From an uncultured Phascolarctobacterium sp. (GTDB taxonomy: Bacteria > Bacillota > Negativicutes > Acidaminococcales > Acidaminococcaceae): a stretch of 64,000 nucleotides of DNA. The DNA is taken from the NCBI GenBank assembly GCA_947589605.1, contig CANQBR010000002.1, forward strand, positions 7,361 to 71,360. The letters are read 5' to 3'. The translations under genes and the position numbers were made by a program. Shown piece after piece: positions 438 to 33,142 of this stretch. Each line of letters opens with the position of its first letter. Positions within the stretch are counted from its first letter, which is position 1. The notes under the pieces are model-generated. The model made no database searches. It saw only the letters and a list, made by a program, of their open reading frames with translations, and was not told the DNA's origin.

Positions 438-1475
438 TCAAAACGCCTGCTTCTGCAAGCGACGCAGCAGGTAGAGAAAATAGGGAGAGCCCAAGAGGGC
501 CGTCATGATGCCCACCCGCACTTCTGCCGGGGCCATGATGACCCGCCCCAAAGAATCGCACAGCACCAAAAAGAGAGCTCCCCCCAAAGCGCTGGCCGGC
601 AGCAGCACCCGATGATCGGGGCCCAGCAGCAACCGCATCATGTGGGGGATGACCAGCCCTACGAAGCCGATGTTGCCGCTGACGCAGACAGAGACGGCGG
701 TGGTGAGAGAGGCCACGGAGAGGAGGGTGAGGCGAAAGGCGGTGACCGGCATGCCCACAGCCTTGGCCTCCGTCTCTCCCAGCACCAAGATGTTGAGGTG
801 CCGGGCCAAGGCCAGCATCACGGCGAGGCCGGCCAAGATGGGGCCGGCTGCCAGATAAACATGCCACCAGCGGCGGTAATCTAAGCCGCCCACCATCCAG
901 AACAGATATTGCTGTATTTTTTGCTCGTTCATAAAGGTCAACAGGCCGGAGGTGACCGCCCCCAGCAAGATGCCCACGGCCACGCCCGCCAAGAGCAGGG
1001 TCATCACTGCGATCTTGCCGTTGCGCATCGATAAGAACACCGTTAAAAACACGGCGCAGATGCTGCCGCAAAAAGCAAAGGCCGGCATTGCGAAATAATT
1101 GCCGGCCGCAAGGCCCAAAGCGATGGAGAGCACGGCCCCCGTGGCGGCGCCGGCGGAGACGCCGATCAGGCCCGGATCGGCCAGGGGATTGCCGAAGATG
1201 CCTTGCATCACAGCACCGGCGGTGGCCAAAGCAGCGCCCACCAAAACGCCCACCAGCATGCGGGGCAGACGTATGTACCAGATCACCGCGAATTGTTCCG
1301 CGGAAAAACGGCTGCCATCAGCGAAGGGCAAATGAAATTGCCGCAGCAAAACGGCCACGGTGTTATCCAAAGGGATGCGTATCTGCCCGAAGGTGAGGGA
1401 GAGGCAGGCTGCTGCCGCCAAAAGAAGAGCCAAGATCAACAAAGCAAGGCGGCTGCGCCGGGAGGAGCTCATCAT
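438..1475 (-). CDS. FecCD/BtuC-family ABC permease (iron-chelate / haem / corrinoid type)
   Basis: Polytopic hydrophobic protein with a FecCD-like C-terminus (GPDHRVLLPASALGGALFLVLCDSLGRVI...GIMTALLGSPYFLYLLRR). Start moved to ATGATG at 1475, with AAGAGG upstream; the track start 1562 adds 29 implausible residues. Confidence 0.85.
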   Translation of the reverse strand: MMSSSRRSRLALLILALLLAAAACLSLTFGQIRIPLDNTVAVLLRQFHLPFADGSRFSAEQFAVIWYIRLPRMLVGVLVGAALATAGAVMQGIFGNPLADPGLIGVSAGAATGAVLSIALGLAAGNYFAMPAFAFCGSICAVFLTVFLSMRNGKIAVMTLLLAGVAVGILLGAVTSGLLTFMNEQKIQQYLFWMVGGLDYRRWWHVYLAAGPILAGLAVMLALARHLNILVLGETEAKAVGMPVTAFRLTLLSVASLTTAVSVCVSGNIGFVGLVIPHMMRLLLGPDHRVLLPASALGGALFLVLCDSLGRVIMAPAEVRVGIMTALLGSPYFLYLLRRLQKQAF

Positions 1476-1533
1476 TTCGTATACCTCTTTATAAAGTGCG
1501 TTCCATATTTGCGATATTTTTCTATTTAACAAA

Positions 1534-1562
1534 ATATTAAAACATTGCCGCACAAAAGTCAA
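1534..1562 (-). promoter_or_regulatory. sigma70-like promoter for the permease operon
   Basis: The minus strand reads TTGACT - 17 nt - TAATAT, about 55 nt upstream of ATG 1475. Confidence 0.55.
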
Positions 1563-1931: not shown

Positions 1932-2249
1932 ATGGCACAACATCCCGCAAGCAAGATCCCCGCAGATCCTCATGGGAAAAAACGGTACGAGAGCGCCAAG
2001 CTCCACGCAGAGGCCGCTGCGGCGGCAGGCAAGTCTTCACAAGAGGTCCATGCGATCTTTGACCGTGTGATGGCCTTCGATCCCAAGACCGATGTCTACA
2101 AATTGTCCCCCGAGGGGCCTCACGCCAAATACCGCTCGGCTTTGATCCATGCGCAAAAAGCCATGGCCGCCGGCAAGGGCAGCGACTACGCTCACAGTAT
2201 CTTTGCCAAGATCATGGCAGGGGAGACCTCCGGCTGCGCTCATCACTGA
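1932..2249 (+). CDS. small His-rich protein with an internal duplication and a C-terminal Cys-Ala-His-His; function unknown
   Basis: Strong RBS and promoter. Residues 14-48 and 64-96 are repeats (HGKKRYESAKLHAEAAAAAGKSSQEVHAIFDRVMA vs HAKYRSALIHAQKAMAAGKGSDYAHSIFAKIMA). 9 His in 105 aa. Confidence 0.7.
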   Translation: MAQHPASKIPADPHGKKRYESAKLHAEAAAAAGKSSQEVHAIFDRVMAFDPKTDVYKLSPEGPHAKYRSALIHAQKAMAAGKGSDYAHSIFAKIMAGETSGCAHH

Positions 2250-2330: not shown

Positions 2331-3167
2331 TCATTGCTCTTTGAGGCGTACCGGCAGCGAGACCTCTACGGCGTATTCGGCGGGGGAGAGGGTCAGCCAA
2401 TGATCTTTGAGGGGCAGCACATAGACGTCGCCGCAGACGGTCAGCTCATGGGTGCGGATGAAATCCCGCAGTTTGAGGGCCAAGGCTTCGCCTTGACCGG
2501 TGAAGGTGCCCCTGAGAGAAACGGTGAGGTAAAGACCGGCGGGGCGGCTGCCGTTGGGGACGGGGCCGCCGCTTTCTTCTCTCACGACGGTGTAATAGGC
2601 TTTGGCGGTGAGAGACCGCCGCTTCAAATATTGAACGCTATCGATGAGCCAGCCGGTGGCCTCCGTTTTAAAACGCTGTTTGGAATTGTTGTGGCGGGCG
2701 TAAGCGGTGACCCGCTCTTTGGGAGAAGAGACAGCGGTGATGTCGGTGATATAAAGAGGCTGCTCTTCTTCCCGGCGCAGAGCGATGACGCCCAAGGTCC
2801 GCTCCTCCGTCTTTTGCAGCTTCAAGGCTACTGCCTCGATGAGCTCTTTATCTCGTTGAGCCCGGGCGATGAGCTCGTCGCAGTCTCGGCGGCGGGCTTC
2901 CAAAAGCTCTCGAAAATTTTTCTCTCCCCGCTCCTCTAAATAGCGCCTGATCTGTTTGACAGGCACGCCCAGCTTGCGCAGGTTGAGGATGATCTCCAAG
3001 GTGAGATATTGGCGGATGGAGTAATGGCGGTAATTGTTCTCCGAGATATATTCCGGCACCAACAGTTTGATCCTGTCGTAATAGAGCAGGGTCTGCCGGG
3101 GGATGTCGAAGAGGGCCGCCAGTTCGCCGGCGGTGTAGAAGGCGGTGGGCAAGGGACCGTCGTTCAT
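2331..3167 (-). CDS. MerR-family transcriptional regulator with a C-terminal GyrI-like (effector-binding) domain
   Basis: N-terminal MerR HTH (YTAGELAALFDIPRQTLLYYDRIKLLVPEYISENNYRHYSIRQYLTLEIILNLRKLGVPVKQIRRYL), a coiled-coil linker and a ~150-aa C-terminal domain. Start set to ATG 3167 with GGGAGAG upstream; track start 3188 is TTG. Confidence 0.8.
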   Translation of the reverse strand: MNDGPLPTAFYTAGELAALFDIPRQTLLYYDRIKLLVPEYISENNYRHYSIRQYLTLEIILNLRKLGVPVKQIRRYLEERGEKNFRELLEARRRDCDELIARAQRDKELIEAVALKLQKTEERTLGVIALRREEEQPLYITDITAVSSPKERVTAYARHNNSKQRFKTEATGWLIDSVQYLKRRSLTAKAYYTVVREESGGPVPNGSRPAGLYLTVSLRGTFTGQGEALALKLRDFIRTHELTVCGDVYVLPLKDHWLTLSPAEYAVEVSLPVRLKEQ

Positions 3168-3405
3168 GGGCACAACTCTCCCTCTCAAAGGTTTTATCTG
3201 CGCTCAATTATAACAAAAGCCCTGCCTTTGCGCAAGAAAAGAGAGGCGCCGGGCCAAGAGGCCTCGGCCCCGCATTTTTTTGAAAAAGCCGGCGGCAAAA
3301 GCTCTCGCCTTTCTCGAAAAAAGCGAAGAGAAAAAAGTTCGGCATGAAGGAGCGCCGGCATTTTGTTTTTAGGTCGGCCCAAAAGCTTCGCTCGGGAAAG
3401 TTTCC

Positions 3406-3436
3406 TTGACTGTATAACTGCTATACAGTTTATTAT
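3406..3436 (+). promoter_or_regulatory. MerR-type promoter: -35 TTGACT, 19-nt spacer carrying the dyad CTGTATA-N5-TATACAG, -10 TATTAT
   Basis: TTGACT 3406-3411; spacer 3412-3430 (19 nt); TATTAT 3431-3436; inverted repeat 3410-3416 / 3422-3428. Sits 34 nt upstream of ATG 3470. Confidence 0.65.
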
Positions 3437-3469
3437 AAAACCGATTACTATTTGCGGGAGGCTATCTTT

Positions 3470-4495
3470 ATGAAGCGAAAGGCAGTTTATCCCTTCACGG
3501 CCATCGTGGGGCAGGAAGCTATGAAGCTGGCCCTGATCCTGAATGTCATCGATCCTTCTCTGGGCGGCGTTTTGATCAAAGGAGAGAAGGGCACGGCCAA
3601 GTCTACGGCAGTGAGGGCCTTGGCTGAACTGCTGCCGGCTTTGACGGCGGTGCACGGCTGCCGCTTTCGCTGCGATCCTGCCGTGCCGGAGCATTTTTGC
3701 GACGATTGCGCCGCTCTGGCTGCCGCAGGGCAGCCTCTGCCGGAGGAAAAAATGAAGATGCGGGTAGTAGAACTGCCCGTCAGCGCCACCGAAGACAGAG
3801 TGGTGGGCACTTTGGATATAGAGCACGCCATCAAACACGGAGAGAAAAAATTCGAGCCGGGGCTTTTGGCGGAGGCCAACCGCAATATTTTATACGTAGA
3901 CGAGATCAATCTTTTGGACGATCACGTGGTGGACGTGCTGCTGGATGCGGCGGCCATGGGGGTCAACACGGTGGAGAGAGAGGGAGTGTCCTATTCTCAT
4001 CCGGCCCGCTTCGTGCTGGTGGGCACCATGAACCCGGAGGAAGGAGACATCCGCCCCCAGCTTTTGGATCGCTTCGGCCTTTCGGTGACCGTGACGGGAG
4101 AGCACGAGCCCTCGCAGCGGGTGGAAGTGATCAAACGCCGCTTGGCTTACGAAGAGGACCCGGACGCTTTTTGCCGCCGCTGGGAAAAAGAGCAGACGCA
4201 GTTGGCAGAGCGCATCATGGCGGCTAGGCAGTTGCTGCCCCGAACGGAGACAGACGACGAACTTTTGCTCAAAGCGGCAGAAGTAGCCGTCGCTTTGCAG
4301 GTTGACGGCCACCGGGCCGACATCACTTTGATCAAGACGGCCCTCACCGTCGCCGCTTTTGAGGGCCGCACCCAAGCGACGAAAGAAGATGTGAAGAGGG
4401 CGGCAGCTTTGGTGCTGCCTCATCGCCTGCGCCGCCTGCCCTTTGAAGAGAAAACGGTGGATTGGGACAAAGTAAAAGAAATTTTAGACGCATGA
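3470..4495 (+). CDS. Mg-chelatase ChlI/BchI-like AAA+ ATPase subunit
   Basis: Walker [10 protein letters not shown] and Walker [13 protein letters not shown]. Long colinear BchI-like blocks ([52 protein letters not shown]; [29 protein letters not shown]). ATG 3470 has GGGAGG 9 nt upstream. Confidence 0.9.
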
Positions 4496-4511: not shown

Positions 4512-6449
4512 ATGAAAAAGTTTGAGGGCTATCCCTTCGCCGCCGTGGTGGGGCAAGAAAAAGTGAAAAAAGCTCTGCTGCTGGTGTTGGTCAACTCCCG
4601 TTGCGGCAGCCTCTTGATCGGCGGACGGCGGGGCACGGCCAAATCGGTGACGGCGCGGGGAGCAGAAGAAGTGGCCCAAGGCCGCCGTTTCTTCACCCTG
4701 CCGCTCAGCATCACGGAAGATATGCTGCTGGGCAGTCTCGATCTGGAGCGGACCTTGCAAAAAGGGGTCAGGGCCTTTGCCCCCGGTCTGCTGAGCCGGG
4801 CCGACGGCAACATCCTCTATGTGGACGATATCAATCTTCTGCGCCGAGAAGTGCTGGCGGCGGTGCAGACCGTCCATGCCGCAGGCGTGAACACAGTGGA
4901 AAGGGAGGGCCTCTCCCACCGTGAAGAAATATCTTTCACGCTCATCGGCACTATGGACCCGGCGGAAGGAACTTTCCCCGGGACCGTGCTGGATCGTTTC
5001 GGCCTCTACGTTGAAACGGAAGACATGACGGACGTAAAGCAGCGGGCCGAAGTGATAAGGCGGGCGCTGAGCTTTGCCGGCGACCCAGGGGCTTTCAGAA
5101 AAAAATTCGCCAAAGAAACGGCTGAGCTGCAGCGGCAGCTGGAGCGGGCGCAGCAGCTTTTGCCTCGGGTGGAAGTGCCCGAGGCGATGTTGGAGCTGAC
5201 TGCGCAAATGTGTGCCCGAGCCCTGTGCGCCGGCCATCGGGCGGAGCTTTATCTTTTAGAAGCGGGCAAAGCGGCGGCGGCTCTGGCCGGCCGCACCTTC
5301 GTGTTGCCCGCCGACTTAGATGAGGCCGCCCTTTTCGTTTTGCCTCATCGCATGGGCCGGTCGCCTCAGGCTCAGCAGCAACTGCAAGAAGAGAACGACG
5401 ACTCAAAAGAAGAAGAGGAAAAGCCAGAAAATAGATCTGAAACTCAAAAGGAAAACGAAGAAGAGAGCGCCCCGCAACTTCCTTCGCAAAACAAAAACAG
5501 GGAAGCGGACGGCTCAAAAGACAAAGAAGATAACGAAAACGAAGAGGAAAAAGAAAAAGAGGAAGATCCACACAGTCAGGAGAGCCCTGCCCCTGCCGAC
5601 GAGACAGCCGCCCCTGATAAAAACTTTCCGCCCCTGCAGCTTTTGGTGGCAGCGGGGCGCAGCCGGCAAGAGCGGCGAGGCAGCGGCAAACGGAGCCTGA
5701 CACGCACCTCTTTGAAGCAGGGCCGCTATGTGCGGGCCGAGCTGCCCGGAGGCGAGGCAGACGACATTGCCTTGGACGCCACCATCCGAGCTGCGGCGCC
5801 TTGGCAGCGGTGGCGGGAGCCCCAAGGCTGCGCCCTCACCGTTTGGCAGAGCGACCTGCGGCAAAAAGTGCGGGAGCAGCGCATCGGCAACACTTTTTTG
5901 TTCGCCGTGGACGCCAGCGGCTCCATGGGCGCTTGGGAGCGGATGAGGGCAGTGAAGGGAGCTGTCTTGCAACTGCTGCGGGAAGCTTATCAAAAGAGGG
6001 ACCGAGTGGGCCTCTTGGCTTTTCGCCGAGACAGGGCAGAGGTGCTGCTGCCCTTCACTCACAGCATCGAGCTGGCTCAAAAGGCGCTGGTGCGGCTGCC
6101 CACCGGAGGAAAAACTCCTTTGGCAGAAGGTCTGACGGCGGCCCTGACTATGATAGCGCAAGGCAATAAAGCGCAAAAAGAACAAGAGCCGGTGCTGATA
6201 TTGGTGACCGACGGCCGGGCCAACGCAAGAAGCGGTGCGACAGAGCCGGTGGCCGCGGCCCTAAAAGCGGCGGAGCGCATTCGCAGGGCCAAGATAAAAG
6301 CGGCGGTCATCGATACGGAGCGGGACTTCATCAAATTGGGCATCGCTCAAAAAGTGGCGGCGGCCATGGGGGCTTCTTATCATCCCCTGAGAAAATTGTC
6401 TCAAGAGGGCGTGCTCCGTATCGTAGAAAACTTAGAAGGCGAGCTGTAA
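4512..6449 (+). CDS. Mg-chelatase ChlD/BchD-like subunit (degenerate AAA+ N-domain, acidic linker, C-terminal VWA/MIDAS)
   Basis: N-domain parallels ChlI but has a degenerate P-loop (GGRRGTAKS). A ~90-aa Glu/Asp/Lys/Pro-rich linker follows. VWA domain carries the MIDAS motif FLFAVDASGSMG. Confidence 0.88.
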   Translation: MKKFEGYPFAAVVGQEKVKKALLLVLVNSRCGSLLIGGRRGTAKSVTARGAEEVAQGRRFFTLPLSITEDMLLGSLDLERTLQKGVRAFAPGLLSRADGNILYVDDINLLRREVLAAVQTVHAAGVNTVEREGLSHREEISFTLIGTMDPAEGTFPGTVLDRFGLYVETEDMTDVKQRAEVIRRALSFAGDPGAFRKKFAKETAELQRQLERAQQLLPRVEVPEAMLELTAQMCARALCAGHRAELYLLEAGKAAAALAGRTFVLPADLDEAALFVLPHRMGRSPQAQQQLQEENDDSKEEEEKPENRSETQKENEEESAPQLPSQNKNREADGSKDKEDNENEEEKEKEEDPHSQESPAPADETAAPDKNFPPLQLLVAAGRSRQERRGSGKRSLTRTSLKQGRYVRAELPGGEADDIALDATIRAAAPWQRWREPQGCALTVWQSDLRQKVREQRIGNTFLFAVDASGSMGAWERMRAVKGAVLQLLREAYQKRDRVGLLAFRRDRAEVLLPFTHSIELAQKALVRLPTGGKTPLAEGLTAALTMIAQGNKAQKEQEPVLILVTDGRANARSGATEPVAAALKAAERIRRAKIKAAVIDTERDFIKLGIAQKVAAAMGASYHPLRKLSQEGVLRIVENLEGEL

Positions 6450-6476
6450 AAAAAGCAGGCAGCGGAGGAGGAAGCG

Positions 6477-7289
6477 ATGAAAAAAATTGCAATCTACGGG
6501 AAGGGCGGCATAGGTAAATCCACGACGGCGGCCAATATCTCGGCGGCTCTCAGCCAACAGGGGCTGCGGGTGTGTCAGATAGGCTGCGACCCTAAAAACG
6601 ATTCCACCCGCCTGCTGCTGGGGCAGCTCTGTCGGCGCACGGTGCTGGACACGGTGCGGGACGGGAAAGAAGTGACCTTGGCCGACGTGGTGCACAGCGG
6701 CTACAACGGCATCAAATGCGTGGAGGCAGGAGGGCCGGAGCCGGGAGTGGGCTGCGCGGGGAGAGGCATCATCGTGGCCTTGGAAAAATTGACGGAGCTG
6801 CAGGCTTTGGACGAGGAAGACGTGCTCATCTACGACGTGCTGGGAGACGTGGTGTGCGGCGGTTTCGCCGTGCCCATCCAGGAAGGTTATGCAACCGATA
6901 TCTACATCGTCACCAGCGGCGAATTGATGAGCCTTTATGCCGCCAACAACATCGCCAAGGGCGTGCGCCGCTTTGCTCTCAGGGGCAGAGCACGGCTGGG
7001 CGGGCTCATCGGCAACAGCCGCAACATGCCCAACGAAAAGGAGTTGTTGGAAGCTTTCGCTCGGCGGCTCAACACTCGCCTTATCGCCTTCATCCCTCGG
7101 GCAGCGGTGGTGAACAGGGCGGAGAACCTGCGGCAGACGGTGCTGCAATATGCCCCAGATGATCCTCAGGCGGAAGTTTATCGGCATTTGGCAGCTCGTC
7201 TTTTGAGCAACGAAGAGTTGACGGTGCCTACTCCTTTGGACTTCGAAGAATTGGAAGACTTGGTGATAAAATATGGCGCTGCAGACTAA
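6477..7289 (+). CDS. NifH-like Fe-protein ATPase (nitrogenase-like, group IV/Nfl type by context)
   Basis: [15 protein letters not shown]-loop. [18 protein letters not shown] and [15 protein letters not shown] contain both [4Fe-4S] Cys ligands. Colinear with canonical NifH along the whole length. Confidence 0.92.
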
Positions 7290-8562
7290 ACGGTACATCA
7301 ATTGGCGCAACAGCTGCAGCTGCAGCATGACCGGCGTGTGGGAAGCTGTGGCCTTCGCAGAGGGAGCGGTGCTGATCTTTCACAGCCCCCGGGCCTGTGC
7401 CCATGTTGCTCGCACTATGGAGATCTATTCTCACTACCGCACTTTGGGAGACCTGCGCCCCGAGACTCTGCGGCCCATCCCCGTCCTCTCCACCCAATTG
7501 ACGGAGAAGCACACTATTTTCGGCGGGGGCGAGCAGCTGGCCGCCTGTCTGCGCTATGCGGCCGAAAAATATAAGCCCCGCTGTATAGCGGTGGCCAATT
7601 CCTGCGTCAGCGGCGTCATCGGCGACGATGTGGAAGCGGTGGGGGCGGAACTGGAAGAAGAGTTGGGCCTGCCGGTGCTGACTGTTAATTGCTACGGCTT
7701 TTTGAACACAGAATATTACGACGGTTATTATGCCATGACAGAGCAGCTCATCCGCCGCTTTTTTCAAAAGCAGCCCAAAGAAATGGGCACGGTGCTGCTT
7801 TTGGGGGACTGCGGCGGTCCTTGGGGCCTTTACGCCGGTGAAGTTCGACGGCTGCTGCAGGCCCTCGGCCTCAAGATCGTCGGTCAATTCCCCGGCTACA
7901 TGGCGGCGGACGAAATGGCTCGGGCGGCTCGGGCAGAGGCGGCGGTGATCTTGGGCGGCCGCGGCGATCTTTACGAAGGTCTGCGAAAGATCGCTCAGCA
8001 ATTAGAGAGGGACTATGCCGTCAAAGCTCTGGGTGCTTTTTATCCCGTAGATCTTCAACAGACGAAGCAGTGGCTCTTGAGCGTGGCCGGCTTTTTCGAC
8101 AAAGAAGAAGAGGGACGGCGGCTCATAGCGGCGGAAGAAGAAAATTTGCAGAGAGCCTTGGGACGTTTCTTGCCGGTGACGGAAGGGCAGAAAGTGCTCC
8201 TTTGTTTGGGGCGGCAATTGGATTATTTCGACCCGGCCACCACATTGGAACTGATCGAACTTTTACATTTGGACCTTTTGGGCGTGGTGCTGCTGGATGC
8301 TTACGAGCCGGCAGAACGGCGGGAAGTGCTGGCCAAAGTGCGGGCGGCGACAGACGCTCCCGTTCACGACACGACTGCGGCAGAAGGACTGTGCGCTCAA
8401 GCTCGGCTGGTGCTCACCACCCACGAACTGCAATATCCCGTGCCCCAACTTTTTTTGCCTATGATACCCGAGGTGGGATACAGCGGCACTCTGCGCCTGC
8501 TGCGGGCGGTCTATCGCCGCCTCTGCAGCCGCAAAGAGGGAGGAGGGCTCACCTATGTCTGA
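7273..8562 (+). CDS. nitrogenase component-1-type oxidoreductase, NifD/BchN-like subunit
   Basis: 429 aa. Cys15/17, Cys42 and Cys111 ([12 protein letters not shown]) have the spacing typical of NifD/BchN cluster ligands. Start overlaps the nifH-like stop by 17 nt. Confidence 0.75.
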
Positions 8563-9895
8563 AAAAGTGCCTTGGAGCGAAGTGTGCCGGCGGCCCGACA
8601 CCTGTGCTTTAACGGGAGCGGCGGCCTTCGCCGCCGGTATCGTCGGAGCGAAGATCTTGGTCAACGGGCCCCTGTGGTGCTATTTTTACGCTCTGCGTTA
8701 TTTGGAGCGCAGTGAGTACCACATGGCTCAAAGGATGCAAAATTCTCAGCCCGACGGCACATCGATAGTGTACGGGACGGAAAAATGTCTCGTCGCCGCT
8801 TTGGAGCGTTTGCAAAAAAGCGGCGGCCCTGCCGAGCTGCTCTTTGTGGAGAACAGCTGCTCCGTGAGCCTCATCGGCGACGATACGGAAGGGATCGTCG
8901 GCAGTCTCGACTTAAACTGTCCCTTCGTGACCATGGATTGCGGCGGGCTCATAGGCGGCTTCGCCGAAGGTTGGAGCAGGGCCGCCGTCCGCACTTTGAG
9001 CAAGCTGAGCTCTGCGGCCCCGGCTCCCGAGCGGAAAAGCTGCCGGCCTCGGCTCAACCTTTTGGGCCTTACCGATTTTTATTTCAACGGCAGGGCGGAC
9101 CGAGAAGAGCTGGTCCGTTTGCTGGAGCTGGCAGGCTACGAGGTGAATTGCATCTGCGGCGCCTCTACCGCAGAAGAGCTGCGATCCATCGCTTCTGCCG
9201 ACTTGAACGTGGTCTGTCACGAAGAACTGGGGCTGGAAGCGGCCCGCTATTTGAACAAACGCTACGGCCTTCCCTATATCAGCCCGGGCCTTCCCTACGG
9301 TTGTCGAGGCAGCGTGGCTTGGTTGGAAAAAGTACACTACGCTCTGCCCTGCCCTCACTTAGAGCGAGCACGGGCGGAAGCGGAGGAGACAGAGGGGCGC
9401 CTCACTGTGTGGGGCAATGAGCTGAGCAGCGTTTGGGGAGAATTGTGGTTCGATAAAGCGTTGGTGGCGGCGCCGGGGACGACGGCCCACTGTGTCGCTC
9501 AAGCCCTGCGTTGCGAGTGGGCCGACTTGGGAGAACTGGCGGTGTTGCCTCGGCAGGCTCTGCAAAACAGCTACTGCGACTGCGCCGATAAATCGCACAG
9601 CGCAGGAGAAGAAGAGGCTGCCTTGCAAGATCTTTGTTCATCCGCCGAAGGGCAGTGCCTTTTGCTTTTGGGAAGCAGCAACGAGAGCATGGAGCTGCGC
9701 AGAGCCGGTCTTTTTGACAGCGCCGTCTGCAACATAGCCCACCCCGTCAGCGACGAAGTGCTCCTCATCGGCGAGCCCTTCATGGGGCTGAGGGGCAGCG
9801 CCCACATGCAGCAGCGGCTGTGGAACGCTTATATCCGCCGGACCTTGGCCTGCGGCGGGCGAGCCGAAGAAAATTTCCGAAAGAATTTCCGATGA
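8555..9895 (+). CDS. nitrogenase component-1-type oxidoreductase, NifK/BchB-like subunit (paralog of the preceding gene)
   Basis: 446 aa. Cys17 (DTCALTG), Cys42 and Cys102 (ENSCSVSLIGDD) mirror the upstream paralog. ATGTCTGA gives an 8-nt overlap with the previous stop. Confidence 0.75.
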   Translation: MSEKVPWSEVCRRPDTCALTGAAAFAAGIVGAKILVNGPLWCYFYALRYLERSEYHMAQRMQNSQPDGTSIVYGTEKCLVAALERLQKSGGPAELLFVENSCSVSLIGDDTEGIVGSLDLNCPFVTMDCGGLIGGFAEGWSRAAVRTLSKLSSAAPAPERKSCRPRLNLLGLTDFYFNGRADREELVRLLELAGYEVNCICGASTAEELRSIASADLNVVCHEELGLEAARYLNKRYGLPYISPGLPYGCRGSVAWLEKVHYALPCPHLERARAEAEETEGRLTVWGNELSSVWGELWFDKALVAAPGTTAHCVAQALRCEWADLGELAVLPRQALQNSYCDCADKSHSAGEEEAALQDLCSSAEGQCLLLLGSSNESMELRRAGLFDSAVCNIAHPVSDEVLLIGEPFMGLRGSAHMQQRLWNAYIRRTLACGGRAEENFRKNFR

Positions 9896-9923
9896 TGATA
9901 GATCTTTTGCGGGGGAGCGAAAA

Positions 9924-12900
9924 ATGAAAGTGCTCTTTTTGACCAATGTGCTCCGCAGTTTGGGGACCATGCGGCAAGCCATGGGCTTTTTACAGCGAGA
10001 GGGCAGTCTGGACGGCAGTTGTTCCGCTTTGTGGGTGACGGAAGCGACGGCTTGGGACGATGCTTGGGCAGCTGAACTGGAAAAGACGGACTTTTTGCTT
10101 TTGCAATGGATGGGGACCGGCCTCGACACTCCCTTTCTGCAGCGGCTGCAGCAGATTTTGCAGCAAAGAGACATCCGTTATTACATCGATGCGGCGGGCA
10201 CGGAAGAAGGAGAATTTTCCAATAAACTTACGGAAGAGCAACTGGACCTGCTCCGGCGCTACTTCCTTTTGGGCGGCGAAAGCAATTTCAAAAATCTGTG
10301 GCTCTGCTGCGCCGCTTTCAGCGGAGCGAAAAATTCTTATGCGCCTCCCGAACCTCTTCCTTGGTGCGGCATCTATCATCCCCGAGCCGCCAAAGTTTAC
10401 ACAGATCTGCAAGAATACGAGGCGGACTTCTGTCGGCCCGGCCTCCCCGCTTTGGGCATCTTCTTCTATCGGGACGAATGGGTGTGGAATGATCTGGCCT
10501 ATCAAAAGGCGCTGGTGGAAGAAGCGGAGCGGCAGGGCCTCAATGCGGTGTGCGTCTTCAGCAACGGCATCCCCCTGCCTGAGCTGGGCATGCCGAGCCT
10601 GCCTCAGGTGTTCGACAAATTCTTTCGCAAAAACGGCGTGCCTTTCATCGACTGTCTCCTCAACACCACCAAGTTCTCTCTCACGGGGAGCGGCGCCCTG
10701 ACCGTTGCTTATTTGCAAGAGCTGGGGGTGCCGGTGCTGGCGGCCTACACATTGATGAAAGATTATAACGAGTGGGCGGAAAACTTTGAAGGGCTGAGCC
10801 CTACGGAGGTGGCCATAGGCGTGAGCATGCCGGAATTCGACGGGGTGCTCCACGGGGTGCCTGTGGCCTGCAAAAAAGTGCTGCCTAACGGTGACGTGTG
10901 CTATCTGCCCATAGCCGAGCGATTGGCGCAGATGGTGAAGAAAGCCAAAAAATGGGCGCTTCTCAGACGCAAACAAAACAGTGAGAAAAAGATCGCTGTC
11001 ATCTTTCATAATTATCCTCCCCGCAACTCCAACATCGGCAGCGCTTTAGGGCTGGACTCCGTCGAAAGCGTCCGCCGTCTGCTGGCGCTTTTAAAAGAAC
11101 GGGGTTATCAAGTGGACCACCTCCCTGCCGACGGCAACGAGCTTATCGCTCAGATAACCGCCAACGCCACCAACGACAAAAATATGTTGGGCAGCCGCCG
11201 CATCGAAGAAGCCATGAAGCTCTCAGCTGCGGCTTACAAAAAATTTTACGAACAACTCCCCGTCAAAACTCAAAACGAATTGAAACGAGATTGGGGCGAA
11301 GCGCCGGGGGAAGTGATGACTGTGGACGACTCCCTCTTGGTGCCTGGCACGGTGAACGGCAATATCTTCATCACCGTGCAGCCGCCCCGCGGCTTCGGCG
11401 AGGACCCGGCCAAGCTCTATCACGACCCCGACTGTGCTCCCACCCATCATTATTTGGCCGTTTACCGCTGGCTGAAGGAAGTGTGGCAGGCGGATGCATT
11501 GCTCCACATCGGCACTCACGGCAGTTTGGAATGGCTGCCGGGGAAAAATGCGGCCCTGAGCGCCGCCTGCTATCCCGATATAGCCCTGGCTCAGTTGCCG
11601 AACATCTATCCCTATCACATGACCATCGTAGGGGAAGGGCTGCAGGCCAAACGGCGGGGCGGCGCCTGCCTCATCGATCATCTTCCCGCTCCCCAGAGCA
11701 GGGCCGGGTCGTACGACGAAACGGAAGAAACGGAAAAATTATTAGATGAATATGCTTATTTTGCTCAAAATAGGCCCGAAGAGCTGCCCCGGGCAGAGCA
11801 GCTGCTGCTGAAAAAGGCCGAGGCAGCCCACCTCACCGACGACGTGCCCTACGATCCGGCCAAACCTTTCAAAGAATACGTTGCGGCTCTGCATAATTAT
11901 CTTTCCGAATTGAAGAGCATGGAAGTGCACGTGGGGCTCCACATTTTGGGCCAGCCGCCGCAAAAAGAGCTGCAGATCGATCAATTGTGGCTGCTGACCC
12001 GCAGAGACAACGGCAAAGTAATGAGCTTGGAAAAGATCATCGCTTCTTTATACGGCGTCACCTGCGAAGAATTGACTGCCCGCAGCGCAGAGATCTATCA
12101 GCCGCTGCAGCTCACTTACGGCCGCTTGGCCGACAAAATTTACGAAGAGGGCCGAGAAGTCCTCCGTTTGCTGCAAGAAGGAGGCTTCACTTCGGCAGCT
12201 GTCGAAAAAGTTTTGGCTCTGCCGCAGTTGACCGGTGCAGAAGCAACTCTTCGCAAAAAAATGAGAGAACTTTGCTTCTACATCAACGAAACGCTCTGCC
12301 CCGCTCTGCAGGCTACGGAGCAAGAAATGAAAAATATGCTGAGAGCTTTGGAAGGGCAGTATGTGGAGCCGGGACCCGGGGGCTCTCCTGCCAGCGCCGG
12401 CTGTGAGCTTTTGCCCAGCGGCCGCAACTTCTACGGCGTAGATCCCCGCAGTCTGCCTACACCGGCGGCGTGGGAGCTGGGGAAAATTTTAGGCGATCAA
12501 GTCATAGAGCGTTTCATCGCCGAAGAAGGGCGCTACCCCGAGAGCGTGGGGCTGGTGCTGTGGGCCGGCAGCAACATGAGGAGCCGAGGCCAATGTGCGG
12601 CTGAATTTTTGTACTTATTGGGCCTGCGGCCCCGCTATCAAAAGGGGAGCCTGCGGGTGACGGGGGTCGATGTCATCCCCTTGGAAGAATTACGCCGCCC
12701 CCGCATCGATGTGGTGGGCCGCATCAGCGGCCTCTTGCGTGACTCTATGCCTTCCGTGGCCGAACTTTTGGACCAAGGGGCGCAGATCGCGGCGTCTTTA
12801 GATGAACCGCCCGAACAAAACTACGTTCGGGCCCACGCTTTAGCCGATGCCGCCGAATTACAAGCAGGCGGTATGAAAAAAGAAGAAGCGTGGCGGCAGG

Positions 12901-13631
12901 CCTGCTATCGTATCTTCGGCGATCCGCCGGGCACTTATGGGGCGGGAGTGCCGGAGCTTTTGGAAGCAAAAAATTGGCAAACAGTGGATGATATAGCCTC
13001 CGTTTATATGCGTTGGGGCGGCCATGCTTACGGGGGCAGAGCCCGGGGCGTATATTTGCCGGAACTTTTTCGCAAACGTTTGAGCAGTGTGGATATCGCC
13101 GTGAAAAACGACGACAATCACGACAACAACATGCTGGCCAGCGACGATTACAACGCTTATCACGGCGGTCTGATCGCCGCGGTGCGCAGTGTGAGGGGCA
13201 AGGCCCCCAAAGGTTACAGCGGCGACAGCAGCGACCGGGGTAAGGTGACTCTGCACAGCGTGCAGGAGCAGGCCAAGCGGCTCTTTCGCAGCGAGGCGAT
13301 CAATCCCAAATTCATCAAAGGAATGATGGAGCACGGCTATAAAGGGGCTGCCGACATGGCCAACATGGTGGCTCACAGTTATCAGTGGGACGCCACCAGC
13401 GGGGTCTTGGAAGATTGGATGTACGAAGGCTACGCCGAAAAATATACCTTCGACCCGAAAGTGCAGGCATGGCTGAAAGAGGTGAACCCCTGGGCCCTGC
13501 AGCGGATGACGGAGGTGCTGTTGGAGGCGGAGCAGCGGGGGCTGTGGAACGCCCGGCCCGAGACCGCCGCCAAATTGCGGGAGTTGTACCTTTCTATGGA
13601 AGGGGACTTGGAGGAACTCAACGATCGATGA
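9924..13631 (+). CDS. CobN/ChlH/HmuS-family large chelatase subunit
   Basis: 1235 aa, the size and architecture typical of CobN-Mg_chel. Blocks such as HFGTHGSLEWLPGK-like (HIGTHGSLEWLPGKN). RBS GGGGGAG. Confidence 0.88.
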   Translation: MKVLFLTNVLRSLGTMRQAMGFLQREGSLDGSCSALWVTEATAWDDAWAAELEKTDFLLLQWMGTGLDTPFLQRLQQILQQRDIRYYIDAAGTEEGEFSNKLTEEQLDLLRRYFLLGGESNFKNLWLCCAAFSGAKNSYAPPEPLPWCGIYHPRAAKVYTDLQEYEADFCRPGLPALGIFFYRDEWVWNDLAYQKALVEEAERQGLNAVCVFSNGIPLPELGMPSLPQVFDKFFRKNGVPFIDCLLNTTKFSLTGSGALTVAYLQELGVPVLAAYTLMKDYNEWAENFEGLSPTEVAIGVSMPEFDGVLHGVPVACKKVLPNGDVCYLPIAERLAQMVKKAKKWALLRRKQNSEKKIAVIFHNYPPRNSNIGSALGLDSVESVRRLLALLKERGYQVDHLPADGNELIAQITANATNDKNMLGSRRIEEAMKLSAAAYKKFYEQLPVKTQNELKRDWGEAPGEVMTVDDSLLVPGTVNGNIFITVQPPRGFGEDPAKLYHDPDCAPTHHYLAVYRWLKEVWQADALLHIGTHGSLEWLPGKNAALSAACYPDIALAQLPNIYPYHMTIVGEGLQAKRRGGACLIDHLPAPQSRAGSYDETEETEKLLDEYAYFAQNRPEELPRAEQLLLKKAEAAHLTDDVPYDPAKPFKEYVAALHNYLSELKSMEVHVGLHILGQPPQKELQIDQLWLLTRRDNGKVMSLEKIIASLYGVTCEELTARSAEIYQPLQLTYGRLADKIYEEGREVLRLLQEGGFTSAAVEKVLALPQLTGAEATLRKKMRELCFYINETLCPALQATEQEMKNMLRALEGQYVEPGPGGSPASAGCELLPSGRNFYGVDPRSLPTPAAWELGKILGDQVIERFIAEEGRYPESVGLVLWAGSNMRSRGQCAAEFLYLLGLRPRYQKGSLRVTGVDVIPLEELRRPRIDVVGRISGLLRDSMPSVAELLDQGAQIAASLDEPPEQNYVRAHALADAAELQAGGMKKEEAWRQACYRIFGDPPGTYGAGVPELLEAKNWQTVDDIASVYMRWGGHAYGGRARGVYLPELFRKRLSSVDIAVKNDDNHDNNMLASDDYNAYHGGLIAAVRSVRGKAPKGYSGDSSDRGKVTLHSVQEQAKRLFRSEAINPKFIKGMMEHGYKGAADMANMVAHSYQWDATSGVLEDWMYEGYAEKYTFDPKVQAWLKEVNPWALQRMTEVLLEAEQRGLWNARPETAAKLRELYLSMEGDLEELNDR

Positions 13632-14644
13632 AAGATAGCCTCGGGCTCGCCCCCTTGAAGCAAGCAGTGCTGAGTTTGAGCGGCCGCTGCAACTATGCCT
13701 GCCGTTATTGCTATGCCTCGGGGCAGAGGAGCGAAGACATGAGCCCCGCAACGGCACGAAAAGCGGTGGAGCTGGCGGCAGGGCAAAAAGAAAAATTCAT
13801 ATTGCAATTCAGCGGCGGCGAACCCTTGTTGGCTCTTCCCGCTCTGCAGGCGGCAGTCATCTATGCGGAAGAAAAAAAGCTCGACTGCGTCATGCAGGTG
13901 CAGACCAATGCAGCTCTTTTGACGGAAGAGATCGCTTTGTGGCTCTTTCGCCATAAAGTGGGGATAGGCGTCAGCCTGGACGGCCGGCCTGCGGTGAACG
14001 ATCGGCTGCGGCGCACGAAAAAGGGCGAAGGCGCCTCTTTCTCCGCTTTGCGGGGGCTGGAAGTGTTGCGACGTTTGGGCATCGGTTGCGGCCTTACCTG
14101 TACGGTGACGAAAGAAAACGTGAACGAGCTGGAAAGGATAGTAGAGCTGGCCTACTTTCTCGGCAACGTGAGAAGATTGGGCTTCGACCTTTTGCGGGCG
14201 CAAGGCAGAGGCCGTGAGGTCTCGCCGCCGTCGCCCCAAGAGGCAGAGGCGGCGATAGAGCGGGTGCGGCGGCGCAACAAAGAGTTGGCGGAGCTCACCG
14301 GCTATGAGATAAAGCTCACCCAAGAAGAAAAAGCTGCGAAGAAAGGCGAGGGACTCCGCCACTGCCCGGCTGTGCGGGGAGAGGCAGTCTTTGTTGCGGC
14401 GGACGGGAGCCTCTACGCCTGTGCCTCTTTCATCGGCGACGAAAAATTTTACATCGGCTGCGCCGAGCGGGGCATCGACGAAAAACTGCGGCGGCAGGCG
14501 ACGGCCGCCTTGCAAAATATGTTGGCCTCTTGTCAACGTTGTCCCGAGCTCGCCGAGTGCGGGGGCGGCTGCGCCGCCCGTTGGCAGCAAGGTGCCTATC
14601 CCGCCGAGTGCGCCTGCAAACGAGCCTTTCGCACAACTTTGTGA
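13628..14644 (+). CDS. radical SAM enzyme with a C-terminal SPASM-type auxiliary cluster domain
   Basis: CNYACRYC (CxxxCxxC) at residues ~22-29, FSGGEPLL, and C-terminal CQRCPELAECGGGCAARW. Start set to ATG 13628, which overlaps the cobN-like stop (ATGA); the track N-terminus (13385) lies inside cobN. Confidence 0.85.
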   Translation: MKDSLGLAPLKQAVLSLSGRCNYACRYCYASGQRSEDMSPATARKAVELAAGQKEKFILQFSGGEPLLALPALQAAVIYAEEKKLDCVMQVQTNAALLTEEIALWLFRHKVGIGVSLDGRPAVNDRLRRTKKGEGASFSALRGLEVLRRLGIGCGLTCTVTKENVNELERIVELAYFLGNVRRLGFDLLRAQGRGREVSPPSPQEAEAAIERVRRRNKELAELTGYEIKLTQEEKAAKKGEGLRHCPAVRGEAVFVAADGSLYACASFIGDEKFYIGCAERGIDEKLRRQATAALQNMLASCQRCPELAECGGGCAARWQQGAYPAECACKRAFRTTL

Positions 14645-15019
14645 CAAAGCAAAACGAGAGCGCCGCTTTTAAAAGCACCTCTCGCAAAAAATCGGTGATA
14701 AAACGAAAGAGCGTCCGCTTCTGAACGAGTCTTTCGCAAAGATCGCGACCGTATGAACAGACGCACCCTTTTCCGAAAGGGATATTCGAAAAAATGTCGT
14801 CACCGAAACCGACGACACCTTCGCCTTCAGATACAGACGGATCGAGAAAAAGTCCCCGTTTTTTTCTTCAAGTCGCCGGAAAAGAGCGGGAGAGGAAAAG
14901 TCCCGAGTTTTCGTCCCGTGCGTTTTTTGCGGGAGGGAGAGAGAAAAAGACGAGGGCACGATGAAAAACCAAAAGGCGAAAGAAAAAAGCCGCAGTTTTG
15001 CGATAAAGAGCCATAATTA

Positions 15020-15048
15020 TTGACCTTCCCAAATGAAAAGTCTATAAT
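15020..15048 (+). promoter_or_regulatory. sigma70-like promoter
   Basis: TTGACC - 17 nt - TATAAT, 62 nt upstream of ATG 15111. Confidence 0.65.
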
Positions 15049-15110
15049 AAATGATAACAGGTTGCAAAAAACTCTCCGACGTATTAACTAAAAGAGGAGT
15101 GAGGAAAATA

Positions 15111-15536
15111 ATGCGAAAAACGATCGCAACATTGCTGACGGCGGTTCTTTTGTCTTTCGGCCTGTGTGCCTCGGCCTTAGCGGCGGAGGCGAGCGGCTTG
15201 GTGGGCTACGTGTATGTGCAGCAGGTGCTGCAGAGCCACCCCGATTATAAAACGGCGGTGAGCGCCGTAGGCTTGGAGCGCCAGCGGGCCGAGAAAGAAT
15301 TCGCCGACAAGGCGGCAGCGCTGGACGAAAACGCCAGGAACGCTTTGGCTGAAAGATTGACCCAGCAGGTGAACAAAAGGGAGCAGGAATTGATGGAGCC
15401 TATTTTGAAAAAAGTCCGCTCCGCCATCGCTGCCGTGGCCAAACAAAACAGCATCGCCAGCGTAGTGGACGGCGGGGCCATGCTCTACGGGGGCAAGGAC
15501 CTCACCCGGGACGTGATCGCCGAAGTGCTGAAATAA
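15111..15536 (+). CDS. OmpH/Skp-family periplasmic chaperone
   Basis: Signal peptide (LLSFGLCASALAAEA) followed by a coiled-coil OmpH-like body (YVYVQQVLQSHPDYK...EFADKAAALDE...QQVNKREQELMEPILKKV). RBS AGAGGAGTGAGG. Confidence 0.7.
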   Translation: MRKTIATLLTAVLLSFGLCASALAAEASGLVGYVYVQQVLQSHPDYKTAVSAVGLERQRAEKEFADKAAALDENARNALAERLTQQVNKREQELMEPILKKVRSAIAAVAKQNSIASVVDGGAMLYGGKDLTRDVIAEVLK

Positions 15537-15567
15537 GAGAGGCGAGGCAAAAAGTGAGGAGCAAAAC

Positions 15568-16125: not shown

Positions 16126-16147
16126 AAAATATCGGGAGGTATGACTT

Positions 16148-16645: not shown

Positions 16646-16691
16646 AGCGCCGGGCTCGCAAAAAGATGAAAAGAGCGAGGGCTCGAATATC

Positions 16692-17672: not shown

Positions 17673-17703
17673 GACGCATCATGCGAAGGAGAGGATATAA
17701 AAA

Positions 17704-18336: not shown

Positions 18337-18351
18337 GGGACGGTGGCGAAG

Positions 18352-32956: not shown

Positions 32957-33092
32957 TAACGTTCCAATAAAAGAGGTCCTGTTAGACAGTAAAGCATGTT
33001 GTGCTCGCATGTATCACAAATATTATACTAAGAGACATGGGAGGTTGTGGCAATCATTGAAAAATTTCTATGCGACATATGGAAGTATGGAA

Positions 33093-33117
33093 AAAGGACG
33101 GCGGCTGCCGTCCTTTT
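33093..33117. terminator. bidirectional rho-independent terminator
   Basis: AAAGGACGGC-ggct-GCCGTCCTTT with A/T runs on both sides. Lies between the convergent GT8 and flavodoxin-like genes. Confidence 0.7.
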
Positions 33118-33142
33118 ACGTTGCGCAAAATTTTAAGATTTT

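Follow-up and report, generated by a model that had tools for sequence, protein, structure and literature searches.

A nitrogenase-like H-D-K gene set with six conserved ligand-column cysteines in a B12-linked chelatase and transport module of gut Negativicutes

The window analyzed here is a stretch of 64,000 nucleotides (64 kb) from an uncultured Phascolarctobacterium sp. (GenBank assembly GCA_947589605.1, contig CANQBR010000002.1, positions 7,361 to 71,360), and it carries three adjacent genes for a nitrogenase-like enzyme (NFL), termed H, D, and K. These genes lie inside a B12-regulated chelatase and transport module that is common in gut Negativicutes, a new context for such an enzyme. D and K each keep three cysteines at the positions of the nitrogenase P-cluster ligands, and D has no ligands for the iron–molybdenum cofactor (FeMo-co). 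With some reserve, we favor the view that H-D-K is an ATP-driven reductase with an inter-subunit six-cysteine cluster, acting on a corrinoid or another tetrapyrrole in cobamide salvage. The cobamide context is the most valuable result and is more informative than the cysteine pattern; it lay outside the frame of an earlier sequence-only reading of the same DNA.

The H, D, and K proteins

The three genes and their products are as follows.
6477 to 7289, plus strand: H, a NifH-like Fe-protein of 270 amino acids (aa), with a P-loop; Cys93 and Cys127 are the predicted ligands of an inter-dimer [4Fe-4S] cluster.
7273 to 8562, plus strand: D-like (alpha-type) subunit, 429 aa; Cys17, Cys42, and Cys111 are predicted cluster ligands; no equivalent of NifD Cys275 or His442.
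8555 to 9895, plus strand: K-like (beta-type) subunit, 446 aa; Cys17, Cys42, and Cys102 are predicted cluster ligands; Cys11 is 97% conserved among relatives.
All genes are co-directional, and they overlap by 17 nt (H/D) and 8 nt (D/K), as do the downstream genes for CobN and a radical S-adenosylmethionine (rSAM) enzyme (4 nt). Because of these overlaps, H-D-K and its neighbors are one operon.

Families were assigned with Pfam, with NCBIfam equivalog models and their cutoffs, by ranking of Protein Data Bank (PDB) chains, and by Foldseek searches with AlphaFold2 models; conservation was scored in sequences from 85 related loci (83 for D, 77 for K, and 72 for H). H matched the Pfam profile Fer4_NifH over its full length (residues 2–267 on profile positions 1–269 of 271). 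It was 57% identical to NifH of D. vulgaris over residues 1–267, and about 40% identical to BchL and BchX. The sequence-only reading had described H as a canonical NifH, colinear with true NifH throughout and carrying the motif GKGGIGKST and two cluster cysteines, one of them in GVGCAGRG. The motifs were found as quoted when the sequence was re-read, the colinearity was borne out by the profile match and the identity to NifH, and both cysteines, Cys93 (in GVGCAGRG) and Cys127, were conserved in 72/72 sequences. The word "canonical" went too far, however. H is better called NifH-like than NifH because it scored just under the cutoffs of both the NifH model (378.3 versus 394.35) and the CfbC model NF033200 (378.8 versus 402).

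D and K were more divergent. The generic family PF00148 was the only Pfam match of each, and their NCBIfam equivalog scores fell far below every cutoff, as for D on the nifD model (90.4 versus 653.55). The nifK model was not among the NCBIfam matches of K, the highest of which was BchB at 85.7 bits. Models for dark-operative protochlorophyllide oxidoreductase (DPOR) all gave sub-cutoff scores: BchL 224.6 versus 345 (H), BchN 45.6 versus 420, and BchB 85.7 versus 490. The CfbD model (TIGR03282) matched D over residues 69–141 only, with 43 bits versus a cutoff of 268.4. MarD was the best solved-structure match of D (98.6 bits), at an identity of only 22–24%. The predicted models of D and K had mean confidence (pLDDT) values of 84.5 and 86.9; in Foldseek searches, the D model was closest to MarD (rank 1), NifD, and NifE, and the K model to DPOR BchB (template modeling [TM] scores 0.77/0.81), AnfK, and MarK.

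In a profile–profile comparison, the D and K families aligned over their whole length (20% identity, probability 99.5%, E 5e-23), with their three cysteine pairs in register. Judged from this alignment, D and K are therefore ancient paralogs with a pseudo-symmetric 3+3 ligand set. The sequence-only reading had held that the presence of two paralogs distinguishes the enzyme from the homomeric CfbD, and this is upheld by the adjacent, overlapping genes, whose products are about 20% identical.

Ligand cysteines, cluster type, and the substrate site

Ligand columns were compared in a MAFFT L-INS-i alignment of 12 D-like and 12 K-like sequences with annotated reference proteins from plasmid records. 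The references were NifD/K/E/N of Bradyrhizobium and NifH/D/K of D. vulgaris and, for tetrapyrrole enzymes, BchN/B/H/L of Sulfitobacter guttiformis and BchX/Y/Z of Roseobacter litoralis; Nif residues are numbered here as in A. vinelandii. Cys17, Cys42, and Cys111 of D shared columns with NifD Cys62, Cys88, and Cys154, with the three cysteines of NifE, and with the three of BchN. Cys17, Cys42, and Cys102 of K shared columns with NifK Cys70, Cys95, and Cys153. The cysteines that the sequence-only reading had picked out are thus homologous to the ligand positions of the P-cluster and of the NB-cluster of DPOR, in an alignment that included NifDK, BchNB, and BchYZ. HMMER alignments to PDB chains gave the same pairings; one of them placed K Cys42 on residue 36 of 3aet_B, which is a cysteine in that chain and Asp36 in wild-type BchB.

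The K-side columns separate this enzyme from its relatives. The column of K Cys42 holds Asp36 in BchB, the only ligand cysteine of NifN, and a cysteine of BchZ. The first K column has no cysteine in NifN, BchB, or BchZ, and the third has none in NifN or BchZ but keeps one in BchB. K thus has an invariant cysteine at the Asp36 column together with two further ligand-column cysteines, which agrees with the earlier proposal of a 3+3 pattern in place of the three cysteines plus aspartate of DPOR.

Conservation of the six residues was nearly complete: in D, Cys42 and Cys111 were present in 83/83 sequences and Cys17 in 82/83 (the exception being a gap), and in K, Cys17, Cys42, and Cys102 were each present in 77/77. 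More distant relatives (28–35% identity) also retained the full set. D has 8 other cysteines and K has 18, most of which vary among relatives. For six columns specified in advance, and with cysteine at frequencies of 2.6% and of 4.7%, the expectation that all would be cysteine by chance is about 2e-9. Chance does not explain the pattern, since the six cysteines are invariant among relatives while most others drift. The positions read earlier (15, 17, 42, and 111 in D; 17, 42, and 102 in K) and the spacings derived from them (25 and 69 in D; 25 and 60 in K) proved exact. The pairing "Cys15/17" in D needs amending: Cys17 is the ligand equivalent and Cys15 is not, as it was 81% conserved and replaced by Ser, Ala, or Thr in the remaining relatives.

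Several other residues near the ligand set were also conserved. D Cys92 (7546–7548) was present in 98% of sequences and kept in distant relatives, and has no cysteine counterpart in NifD/E or BchN/Y. K Cys11 (8585–8587) was 97% conserved. K residue 129 (8939–8941), one residue before the column of NifK Ser188, was Ser in 56% or Cys in 38% of sequences; the Ser188 column itself is an invariant Gly in K. The presence of Ser or Cys beside that column is suggestive only.

From these alignments, the six cysteines very probably bind an iron–sulfur cluster at the D/K interface. They could hold an [8Fe-7S] P-cluster, a pair of [4Fe-4S] clusters, or one [4Fe-4S] cluster; we would put the chance of [8Fe-7S] at a little short of even. 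A 3+3 pattern alone is not new, as 3+3 cysteines in the absence of FeMo-co ligands were already described for nitrogenase-like clades in 2012 (PMC3464626) and are reported for the majority of Group IV (PMC13474568). All solved systems with 3+3 cysteines (NifDK, VnfDK, AnfDK, and MarDK) carry P-clusters, and the solved 3+1 systems NifEN and DPOR carry [4Fe-4S], as does chlorophyllide oxidoreductase (COR) by inference from mutagenesis (PMC13474568).

That six cysteines are present without a P-cluster is a possibility that we regard as evenly poised. It touches the cluster type alone and fits any functional reading. The site might hold a single [4Fe-4S], as in NifEN, DPOR, and COR, with spare cysteines, or two [4Fe-4S] cubanes with additional ligands such as K Cys11 and D Cys92 or Cys15. 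Every characterized NFL directed at a tetrapyrrole uses [4Fe-4S] and not a P-cluster (PMC13474568), a point that weighs on the P-cluster part of the view favored here, and Dos Santos et al. proposed [4Fe-4S] for NFLs with 3+3 cysteines and no FeMo-co ligands (PMC3464626). The near invariance of K Cys11 and D Cys92 and the invariant Gly of K at the Ser188 column point in the same direction. On the other side, every solved D/K pair with the full 3+3 set carries [8Fe-7S], and a NifH-like partner able to fuse a [4Fe-4S] pair is present. Furthermore, D Cys92 would lie, by homology, about two helical turns below the cluster site, and 94% of sequences have Ser or Cys at K residue 129, which adjoins the Ser188 column.

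D has no equivalents of the FeMo-co ligands of NifD. The column of NifD Cys275 falls on Leu or an insert in D, in a segment (GGRGD-LYEG) without cysteine, and in the PDB-chain alignment the cofactor-binding cysteine of MarD (in GFCYT) pairs with a Leu. The His442 column holds Gln; His384 of D, in the motif TTHEL, is three residues off that column, and some relatives have Ser, Asn, Val, or Glu instead. When Nif and Bch references were run by tblastn across the whole window, a single H-D-K set was found, the remaining window being housekeeping, and no nifB, nifE, or nifN was detected there or across some 85 related loci, each at most 21 kb long. The only radical SAM gene at the locus encodes a complete, invariant seven-cysteine SPASM domain and is not NifB-like. 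It had been argued earlier that both subunits are too short for a FeMo-co-type site. The conclusion stands by way of the missing ligands, but the argument from length is weak, as BchN and NifE are similar in length. H-D-K is almost certainly not a nitrogenase.

The gene module and its link to vitamin B12

The gene order around H-D-K is chlI-chlD-H-D-K-cobN-rSAM(SPASM). A relative was encoded in each of 181 species genomes, the nearest being a metagenome-assembled genome (MAG) of a rabbit-gut Phascolarctobacterium sp., Lapin-024, in which D is 91% identical. In the related loci inspected for neighbors, synteny of H-D-K with genes for a substrate-binding protein, a FecCD-family permease, CobN, rSAM, and ChlI/ChlD was kept in Phascolarctobacterium, Acidaminococcaceae, Dialister, Selenomonas, Megamonas, Schwartzia, Pectinatus, and Veillonellaceae. 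In most relatives, K and cobN are separated within the operon by the genes for the binding protein and the permease (H-D-K-PBP-FecCD-CobN, where PBP is the binding protein).

Two further features of the distribution were recorded. H-D-K stood alone in loci L060, L063, L069, L077, and L083 (Dialister and mislabelled bins), with dxr, ispG, uvrD, ligA, and rpoB/C as neighbors and no chelatase or transporter gene nearby; the Dialister loci L062 and L067 have the full H-D-K-CobN-rSAM-ChlI-ChlD set. Bins titled Bacteroides, Segatella, Escherichia coli, Ruminococcus, Lachnospiraceae, and others carry the Negativicutes operon with typical synteny and 40–52% identity to the window. These oddly titled GTDB representative bins (L013, L022, L025, L026, L050, L052, L064, L075, L077, and L083) probably reflect contamination or mislabelling rather than horizontal transfer.

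Control by B12 is found in several related loci. Rfam placed a cobalamin riboswitch (RF00174) directly upstream of the nifH-like gene in L056, and the same placement was found in L048, L055, and L057 with a model of our own built from Rfam matches, the hits being then confirmed by Rfam. L056 has an additional adenosylcobalamin riboswitch directly upstream of exbB. The Pelosinus locus L084 has riboswitches ahead of a CbiK-D-K-CbiZ unit, of a second K-like gene, and of a gene for a binding protein, and a BacA/SbmA-type ABC transporter gene adjoins. This Pelosinus MAG carries four cobalamin riboswitches in all (6450–19475), encodes CbiK, a class II chelatase that replaces CobN/ChlID, immediately ahead of D-K-CbiZ, and has no nifH-like gene within 19.6 kb. 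Of the distinct related loci, 17 encode CbiZ within 10 kb and 18 a nitrilase-family hydrolase.

A similar module is known without the nitrogenase-like genes. In Dehalobacter restrictus, operon-2 is under riboswitch control, and corrinoid starvation raises its proteins 17–82-fold (PMC4285132). It encodes CobN (1262 aa), a ChlD-like protein (657), ChlI (348), and an rSAM/SPASM enzyme (347), with CbiZ and FepB/BtuCD (PMC4285132). The window has the corresponding set, namely CobN (1235 aa), a ChlD-like protein (645), ChlI (341), rSAM/SPASM (338), and FepB/BtuCD-type transporter genes. Taken with the synteny and the riboswitches, we consider it probable that H-D-K has a cobamide-linked role.

The other features of the module in the window are as follows.
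2 to 418, minus strand: 3' portion of a CN_hydrolase gene (nitrilase/amidase family), truncated at the window boundary; 88% identical by tblastn to residues 1–139 of the CN_hydrolase of L004.
438 to 1562, minus strand: FecCD-family ABC permease, BtuC-like; best NCBIfam match BtuC NF007081 (298.7 bits, cutoff 461); conserved in related loci.
1932 to 2249, plus strand: conserved 105-aa protein with His-rich repeats and a Cys/His tail; strong sigma70-like promoter at 1873–1901 (11/12 matches).
2331 to 3188, minus strand: MerR-family regulator of BmrR type (helix-turn-helix and ligand-binding C-terminal domain; Pfam MerR_1/MerR), divergently oriented.
3406 to 3436, plus strand: candidate MerR-type promoter/operator between the regulator gene and chlI; -35 TTGACT, 19-nt spacer, -10 TATTAT.
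3470 to 4495, plus strand: ChlI/BchI/CobS-like AAA+ chelatase ATPase (Pfam and NCBIfam); 341 aa from ATG 3470; ribosome-binding site GGGAGG at 3456–3461.
4512 to 6449, plus strand: ChlD/BchD/CobT-like chelatase subunit with an AAA-like N-terminus, an acidic/Pro-rich linker, and a VWA domain.
9924 to 13631, plus strand: CobN-type large chelatase subunit; TIGR02257 (cobaltochelatase CobN) 909.8 bits, above the cutoff of 822.
13628 to 14644, plus strand: radical SAM enzyme, distinct from NifB, with a complete SPASM domain; start codon and cobN stop codon overlap in ATGA.
16692 to 17672, plus strand: Peripla_BP_2 substrate-binding protein (the class of BtuF, HmuT, and IsdE); orthologs lie within the operon in most relatives.
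17704 to 19501, plus strand: ExbB (17704–18336), ExbD (18343–18768), and TonB (18755–19501); homologs are Pfam-annotated in L002/L004.

The chelatase is of the cobalt type by its large subunit, for which the PDB ranking was CobN (697 and 609 bits), then ChlH (532), then HmuS (376). It is presumed cytoplasmic, as no signal-peptide-like N-terminus was seen by eye. The ChlD-like subunit scored 637 bits on TIGR02442 ("putative cobaltochelatase") and 440 bits on BchD-ChlD, both below cutoff. The ChlI-like subunit carries a four-cysteine motif, C-x3-C-x8-C-x2-C (Cys64/68/77/80; 3659–3709), that was 91–95% conserved in 22 orthologs and suggests a zinc or iron–sulfur site; the Mg-chelatase subunit BchI is not known to have such a site. 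In the rSAM enzyme, the CX3CX2C motif and the seven SPASM cysteines were invariant in 42 sequences. ExbB-ExbD-TonB is the energizing complex for outer-membrane receptors.

In the closest relative, L004, the gene order is CbiZ, CN_hydrolase, FecCD (BtuC-like permease). Since the window begins in the CN_hydrolase gene and cbiZ comes next in L004, which is 91% identical, a cbiZ gene would be expected just past the left edge of the window.

The 105-aa protein had no Pfam or NCBIfam family match. It contains two internal repeats, PHxKxRYESAxxHxEAAKxAGKSxEExHxIFxKVM, and ends in GETSGCAHH (in the family, SGCAHH or SGHCHH). At least 35 related loci have a homolog adjacent to the operon (for example, L001 8701–9006, L048 19438–19746, and L056 19192–19491). 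From these features it may be a metal (cobalt) chaperone standing in for CobW.

Residues 16–279 of the MerR-family regulator matched BmrR structures full-length (E 6e-15), and about 40 related loci carry its gene upstream. Promoters of MerR-family regulators have a characteristic architecture, and 3406–3436 probably serves as a MerR-type promoter controlling the operon, because its 19-nt spacer with a dyad fits that architecture. The dyad is a perfect 8-bp one, ACTGTATA-N5-TATACAGT, at 3409–3429 inside the spacer, and the operator sequence was found again only in L004/L006. The promoter had escaped our promoter scan, which accepts only 16–18-nt spacers. The MerR regulator and the riboswitch appear to be alternatives, since the riboswitch loci L048, L055, L056, and L057 have no MerR gene.

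Elsewhere in the window, GC content falls to 0.44 at 32001–34000, compared to about 0.55–0.60 in other parts, around a family-8 glycosyltransferase gene (31910–32956) that may be a horizontally acquired cell-envelope gene.

Proposed role, competing explanations, and known systems

From these observations we infer an electron path, a substrate, and a reaction. By homology, an H homodimer would hold [4Fe-4S] on Cys93 and Cys127, bind MgATP, and dock on a D2K2 core. It would pass low-potential electrons to a metallocluster that D Cys17/42/111 and K Cys17/42/102 would bind where the two subunits meet, and from there the electrons would reach an organic substrate in the cavity equivalent to the FeMo-co site of NifD and the protochlorophyllide site of DPOR, which in D has no cluster ligands. 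By gene context, H-D-K would be part of a module for cobamide acquisition and salvage that includes the CobN-ChlI-ChlD class I cobalt chelatase, the SPASM rSAM enzyme, the 105-aa putative metal chaperone, and BtuC/BtuF-like and TonB-dependent import genes, with CbiZ and an amidase-family hydrolase near. Because of this context (chelatase, import genes, and CbiZ), the likeliest substrate is an imported corrinoid, or else some other tetrapyrrole that the chelatase uses or produces. The NFL would drive reduction of the macrocycle or its bound metal beyond the reach of ordinary cellular reductants. In the lineage of the window, a BmrR-type MerR activator would control the operon through the promoter with the 19-bp spacer; in other lineages, the cobalamin riboswitch would do so.

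A bolder version is more tentative, and we would not rely on it. The enzyme might be the first nitrogenase-like enzyme of B12 metabolism, an ATP-driven corrinoid reductase, possibly with a true [8Fe-7S] P-cluster, that works with CobN-ChlID and the SPASM rSAM enzyme. Possible reactions are the reductive removal and re-insertion of cobalt, or the repair or conversion of gut corrinoids that cannot otherwise be used.

Several observations weigh against a role in cobamide salvage. First, no known cobamide-salvage step requires an ATP-driven reductase. Second, riboswitches were found in only 5 of the 83 sources searched, by Rfam and by our own model from five riboswitches, which may overlook divergent ones; Rfam found none in the window itself, where the MerR-type promoter stands in its place. 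Third, there is no cbiZ within the 64 kb of the window, and the TonB-dependent receptors of related loci gave near-tied scores on heme-receptor and B12-receptor models, all below cutoff. Fourth, some Dialister genomes have H-D-K alone among housekeeping genes. Fifth, the Dehalobacter module works without nitrogenase-like genes, and an NFL step is therefore not intrinsic to it (PMC4285132).

Among the alternatives to salvage, de novo synthesis of a reduced metallo-tetrapyrrole is unlikely. Here the NFL would take the part of CfbCD or DPOR after metal insertion by CobN-ChlID, in an oxygen-independent, late-cobalt-insertion branch of cobamide synthesis or in the synthesis of a distinct F430-like cofactor. 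A chelatase paired with an NFL is the scheme by which F430 (CfbA, CfbCD) and bacteriochlorophyll are made, with the Sulfitobacter order bchN-bchB-bchH(CobN family)-bchL as an example. H scores alike on the CfbC and NifH models, K is most like BchB in sequence and fold, and biosynthetic genes would also fit riboswitch control. However, most relatives have import genes inside the operon between K and cobN, and the neighbors include the salvage gene for CbiZ and not the cbi/cob genes of ring synthesis. The locus has no methyltransferase or amidotransferase genes, and the homologous module of D. restrictus was described as a salvage operon in an organism unable to make corrinoids (PMC4285132).

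Use of heme or porphyrin appears similarly improbable. CobN-like and ChlI/ChlD proteins would form an HmuS-like dechelatase that takes iron from imported heme, the NFL would reduce heme or porphyrin, and the rSAM enzyme would process the macrocycle. Proteins of the CobN family can indeed be heme dechelatases (HmuS, PDB 9d26; PMC12583661), and in Bacteroides lysates the conversion of heme to protoporphyrin IX required NADH and the membrane fraction (PMC12583661). The top NCBIfam match of the TonB-dependent receptors in L001/L002 is a heme/hemoglobin receptor subfamily, the binding proteins weakly match the heme-binding protein IsdE, and a BmrR-type regulator would suit a planar ligand. The receptor matches, however, are sub-cutoff and nearly tied with B12 receptor models. 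The CobN of the window is nearer to true CobN than to HmuS and lies above the CobN equivalog cutoff, the permease is most like BtuC, and CbiZ and CbiK occur as neighbors. Furthermore, the controlling element in five lineages is the cobalamin riboswitch rather than an iron or heme signal, and the homologous Dehalobacter module answers corrinoid starvation. HmuS-like dechelation as the main role, an idea that came from CobN and the TonB context, was downgraded by the ranking of CobN over ChlH over HmuS, by the riboswitches, and by CbiZ.

A C–S bond-cleaving enzyme of MarHDK/IsrHDK type, or a true or alternative nitrogenase, is highly improbable: MarD is the best solved match of D in both the PDB-chain ranking and Foldseek, the P-cluster cysteine set is common to D/K, MarDK, and NifDK, and Mar systems are said to occur in Negativicutes, but D is a distant relative of MarD with Leu in place of the cysteine ligand of the L-cluster or FeMo-co, no Nif equivalog score reaches its cutoff (for nifD, 90 versus 653), and the locus has no NifB/MarB, nifE/N, or sulfur-metabolism genes. 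These enzymes were ruled out because D lacks the cofactor ligands, because no NifB gene is found at the locus, and because of the genes around H-D-K.

The role in cobamide salvage would have several consequences. The conversion of succinate to propionate via methylmalonyl-CoA mutase needs B12, and the hosts of the operon are common gut consumers of succinate; because of this need, the system bears on competition for cobamides in the gut. If the proposed role is correct, an ATP-driven reduction step would be added to cobamide salvage, a role would be given to the CobN/ChlID/rSAM salvage module, which has been biochemically unexplained since 2015, and a new salvage route would be described in abundant human and animal gut Negativicutes (Phascolarctobacterium and Dialister). 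The enzyme would also be the first tetrapyrrole-linked NFL with a full set of P-cluster ligands and, if it holds a P-cluster, the first case of P-cluster use in tetrapyrrole chemistry.

NFLs are a small family in which newly assigned clades have brought unexpected chemistry, including that of chlorophyll, F430, methylthio-alkane reduction, and isethionate reduction. A 2026 review named the assignment of functions to the remaining clades as a central problem, one in which gene context has so far been of little help (PMC13474568). The clade of the window has an unusually informative context (chelatase, rSAM, corrinoid-type importers, and B12 riboswitches), which leads to a concrete, testable hypothesis. 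The clade also accounts for part of the "pseudo-nifH" signal that inflates counts of nitrogen fixers in gut metagenomes (PMC8597730). Full-text searches of open-access papers turned up none in which a nitrogenase-like enzyme is connected with CobN/ChlID, with cobamides, or with a B12 riboswitch; in the review, context ties Group IV to sulfur metabolism alone and Group VI to tetrapyrroles alone (PMC13474568).

Compared to known systems, H-D-K shows a distinct combination of features. MarHDK (Group IV-C; PDB 9fmg, 9d9u) contains the closest solved relative of D and shares the NifH-like partner, the D/K heterotetramer, and the full 3+3 cysteines, and it is likewise not a nitrogenase. It differs in sequence (22–24% identity), in the length of D (429 aa versus 519 aa for MarD, about 90 residues shorter), and in the cofactor-binding cysteine, for which D has Leu. 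The loci of the present clade also have no MarB/NifB gene and no sulfur context, and show instead a context of chelatase, B12 riboswitch, and corrinoid transport. NifE of NifEN ranks with the best matches of D in both sequence and fold, and its three cysteines align with the three of D; NifN, in contrast, keeps one of three cysteines, giving [4Fe-4S], and NifEN works with NifB on the L-cluster, a partner that is missing here.

The Group VI NFLs of Elusimicrobia resemble the present system in that a tetrapyrrole role has been proposed from context, FeMo-co ligands and NifB are lacking, and rSAM genes are neighbors (10.1101/765248; PMC13474568). By published description, and without a tree, membership of H-D-K in Group VI was ruled out by cysteine count and NifH identity: Group VI has at most 4/6 P-cluster cysteines and a NifH about 40% identical, compared to 6/6 and 57% here (PMC13474568). 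CobN/ChlID or B12 riboswitches have not been reported at Group VI loci.

CfbCD of F430 synthesis is similar in that H scores 378.8 bits on the CfbC model, a chelatase step is followed by NFL reduction of a metallo-tetrapyrrole, and the a,c-diamide form is also a CobN substrate type. CfbD, however, is a single subunit with a symmetric [4Fe-4S] (PMC13474568), whereas the window encodes two paralogs about 20% identical to each other, in a bacterial host and not a methanogen. Operon-2 of Dehalobacter restrictus and Acetobacterium woodii shares CobN, ChlD-like, ChlI, and rSAM/SPASM proteins of nearly equal size, CbiZ, FepB/BtuCD-type transport, and a cobalamin riboswitch (PMC4285132); it has no nitrogenase-like genes, the word "nitrogenase" being absent from the paper and its tables, and its orthology with the module described here is drawn from annotation and protein lengths, not from alignment.

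DPOR (BchL/N/B, Group V) contains the protein nearest to K in sequence and fold (BchB, 85.7 bits; TM 0.77/0.81), and its three BchN cysteines correspond to the three of D. It differs in several respects. First, K has Cys for BchB Asp36 and a first cysteine that BchB lacks. Second, K (446 aa) has no counterpart of the C-terminal extension of about 70–90 residues of BchB (514–536 aa). Third, H is 40% identical to BchL versus 57% to NifH, no bch genes are present, and the host is a non-phototroph. The two systems are alike in having a gene of the CobN/BchH chelatase family adjoining (bchN-B-H-L) and in their expected chemistry, the ATP-driven reduction of a tetrapyrrole. On plasmid pSD118 of Sulfitobacter guttiformis (L087, 18430–25750), the order is bchF-bchN-bchB-bchH-bchL-bchM, with bchH annotated as "cobaltochelatase subunit CobN." The order bchN-bchB-bchH mirrors D-K-cobN of the window and may reflect shared ancestry of the chelatase and NFL modules.

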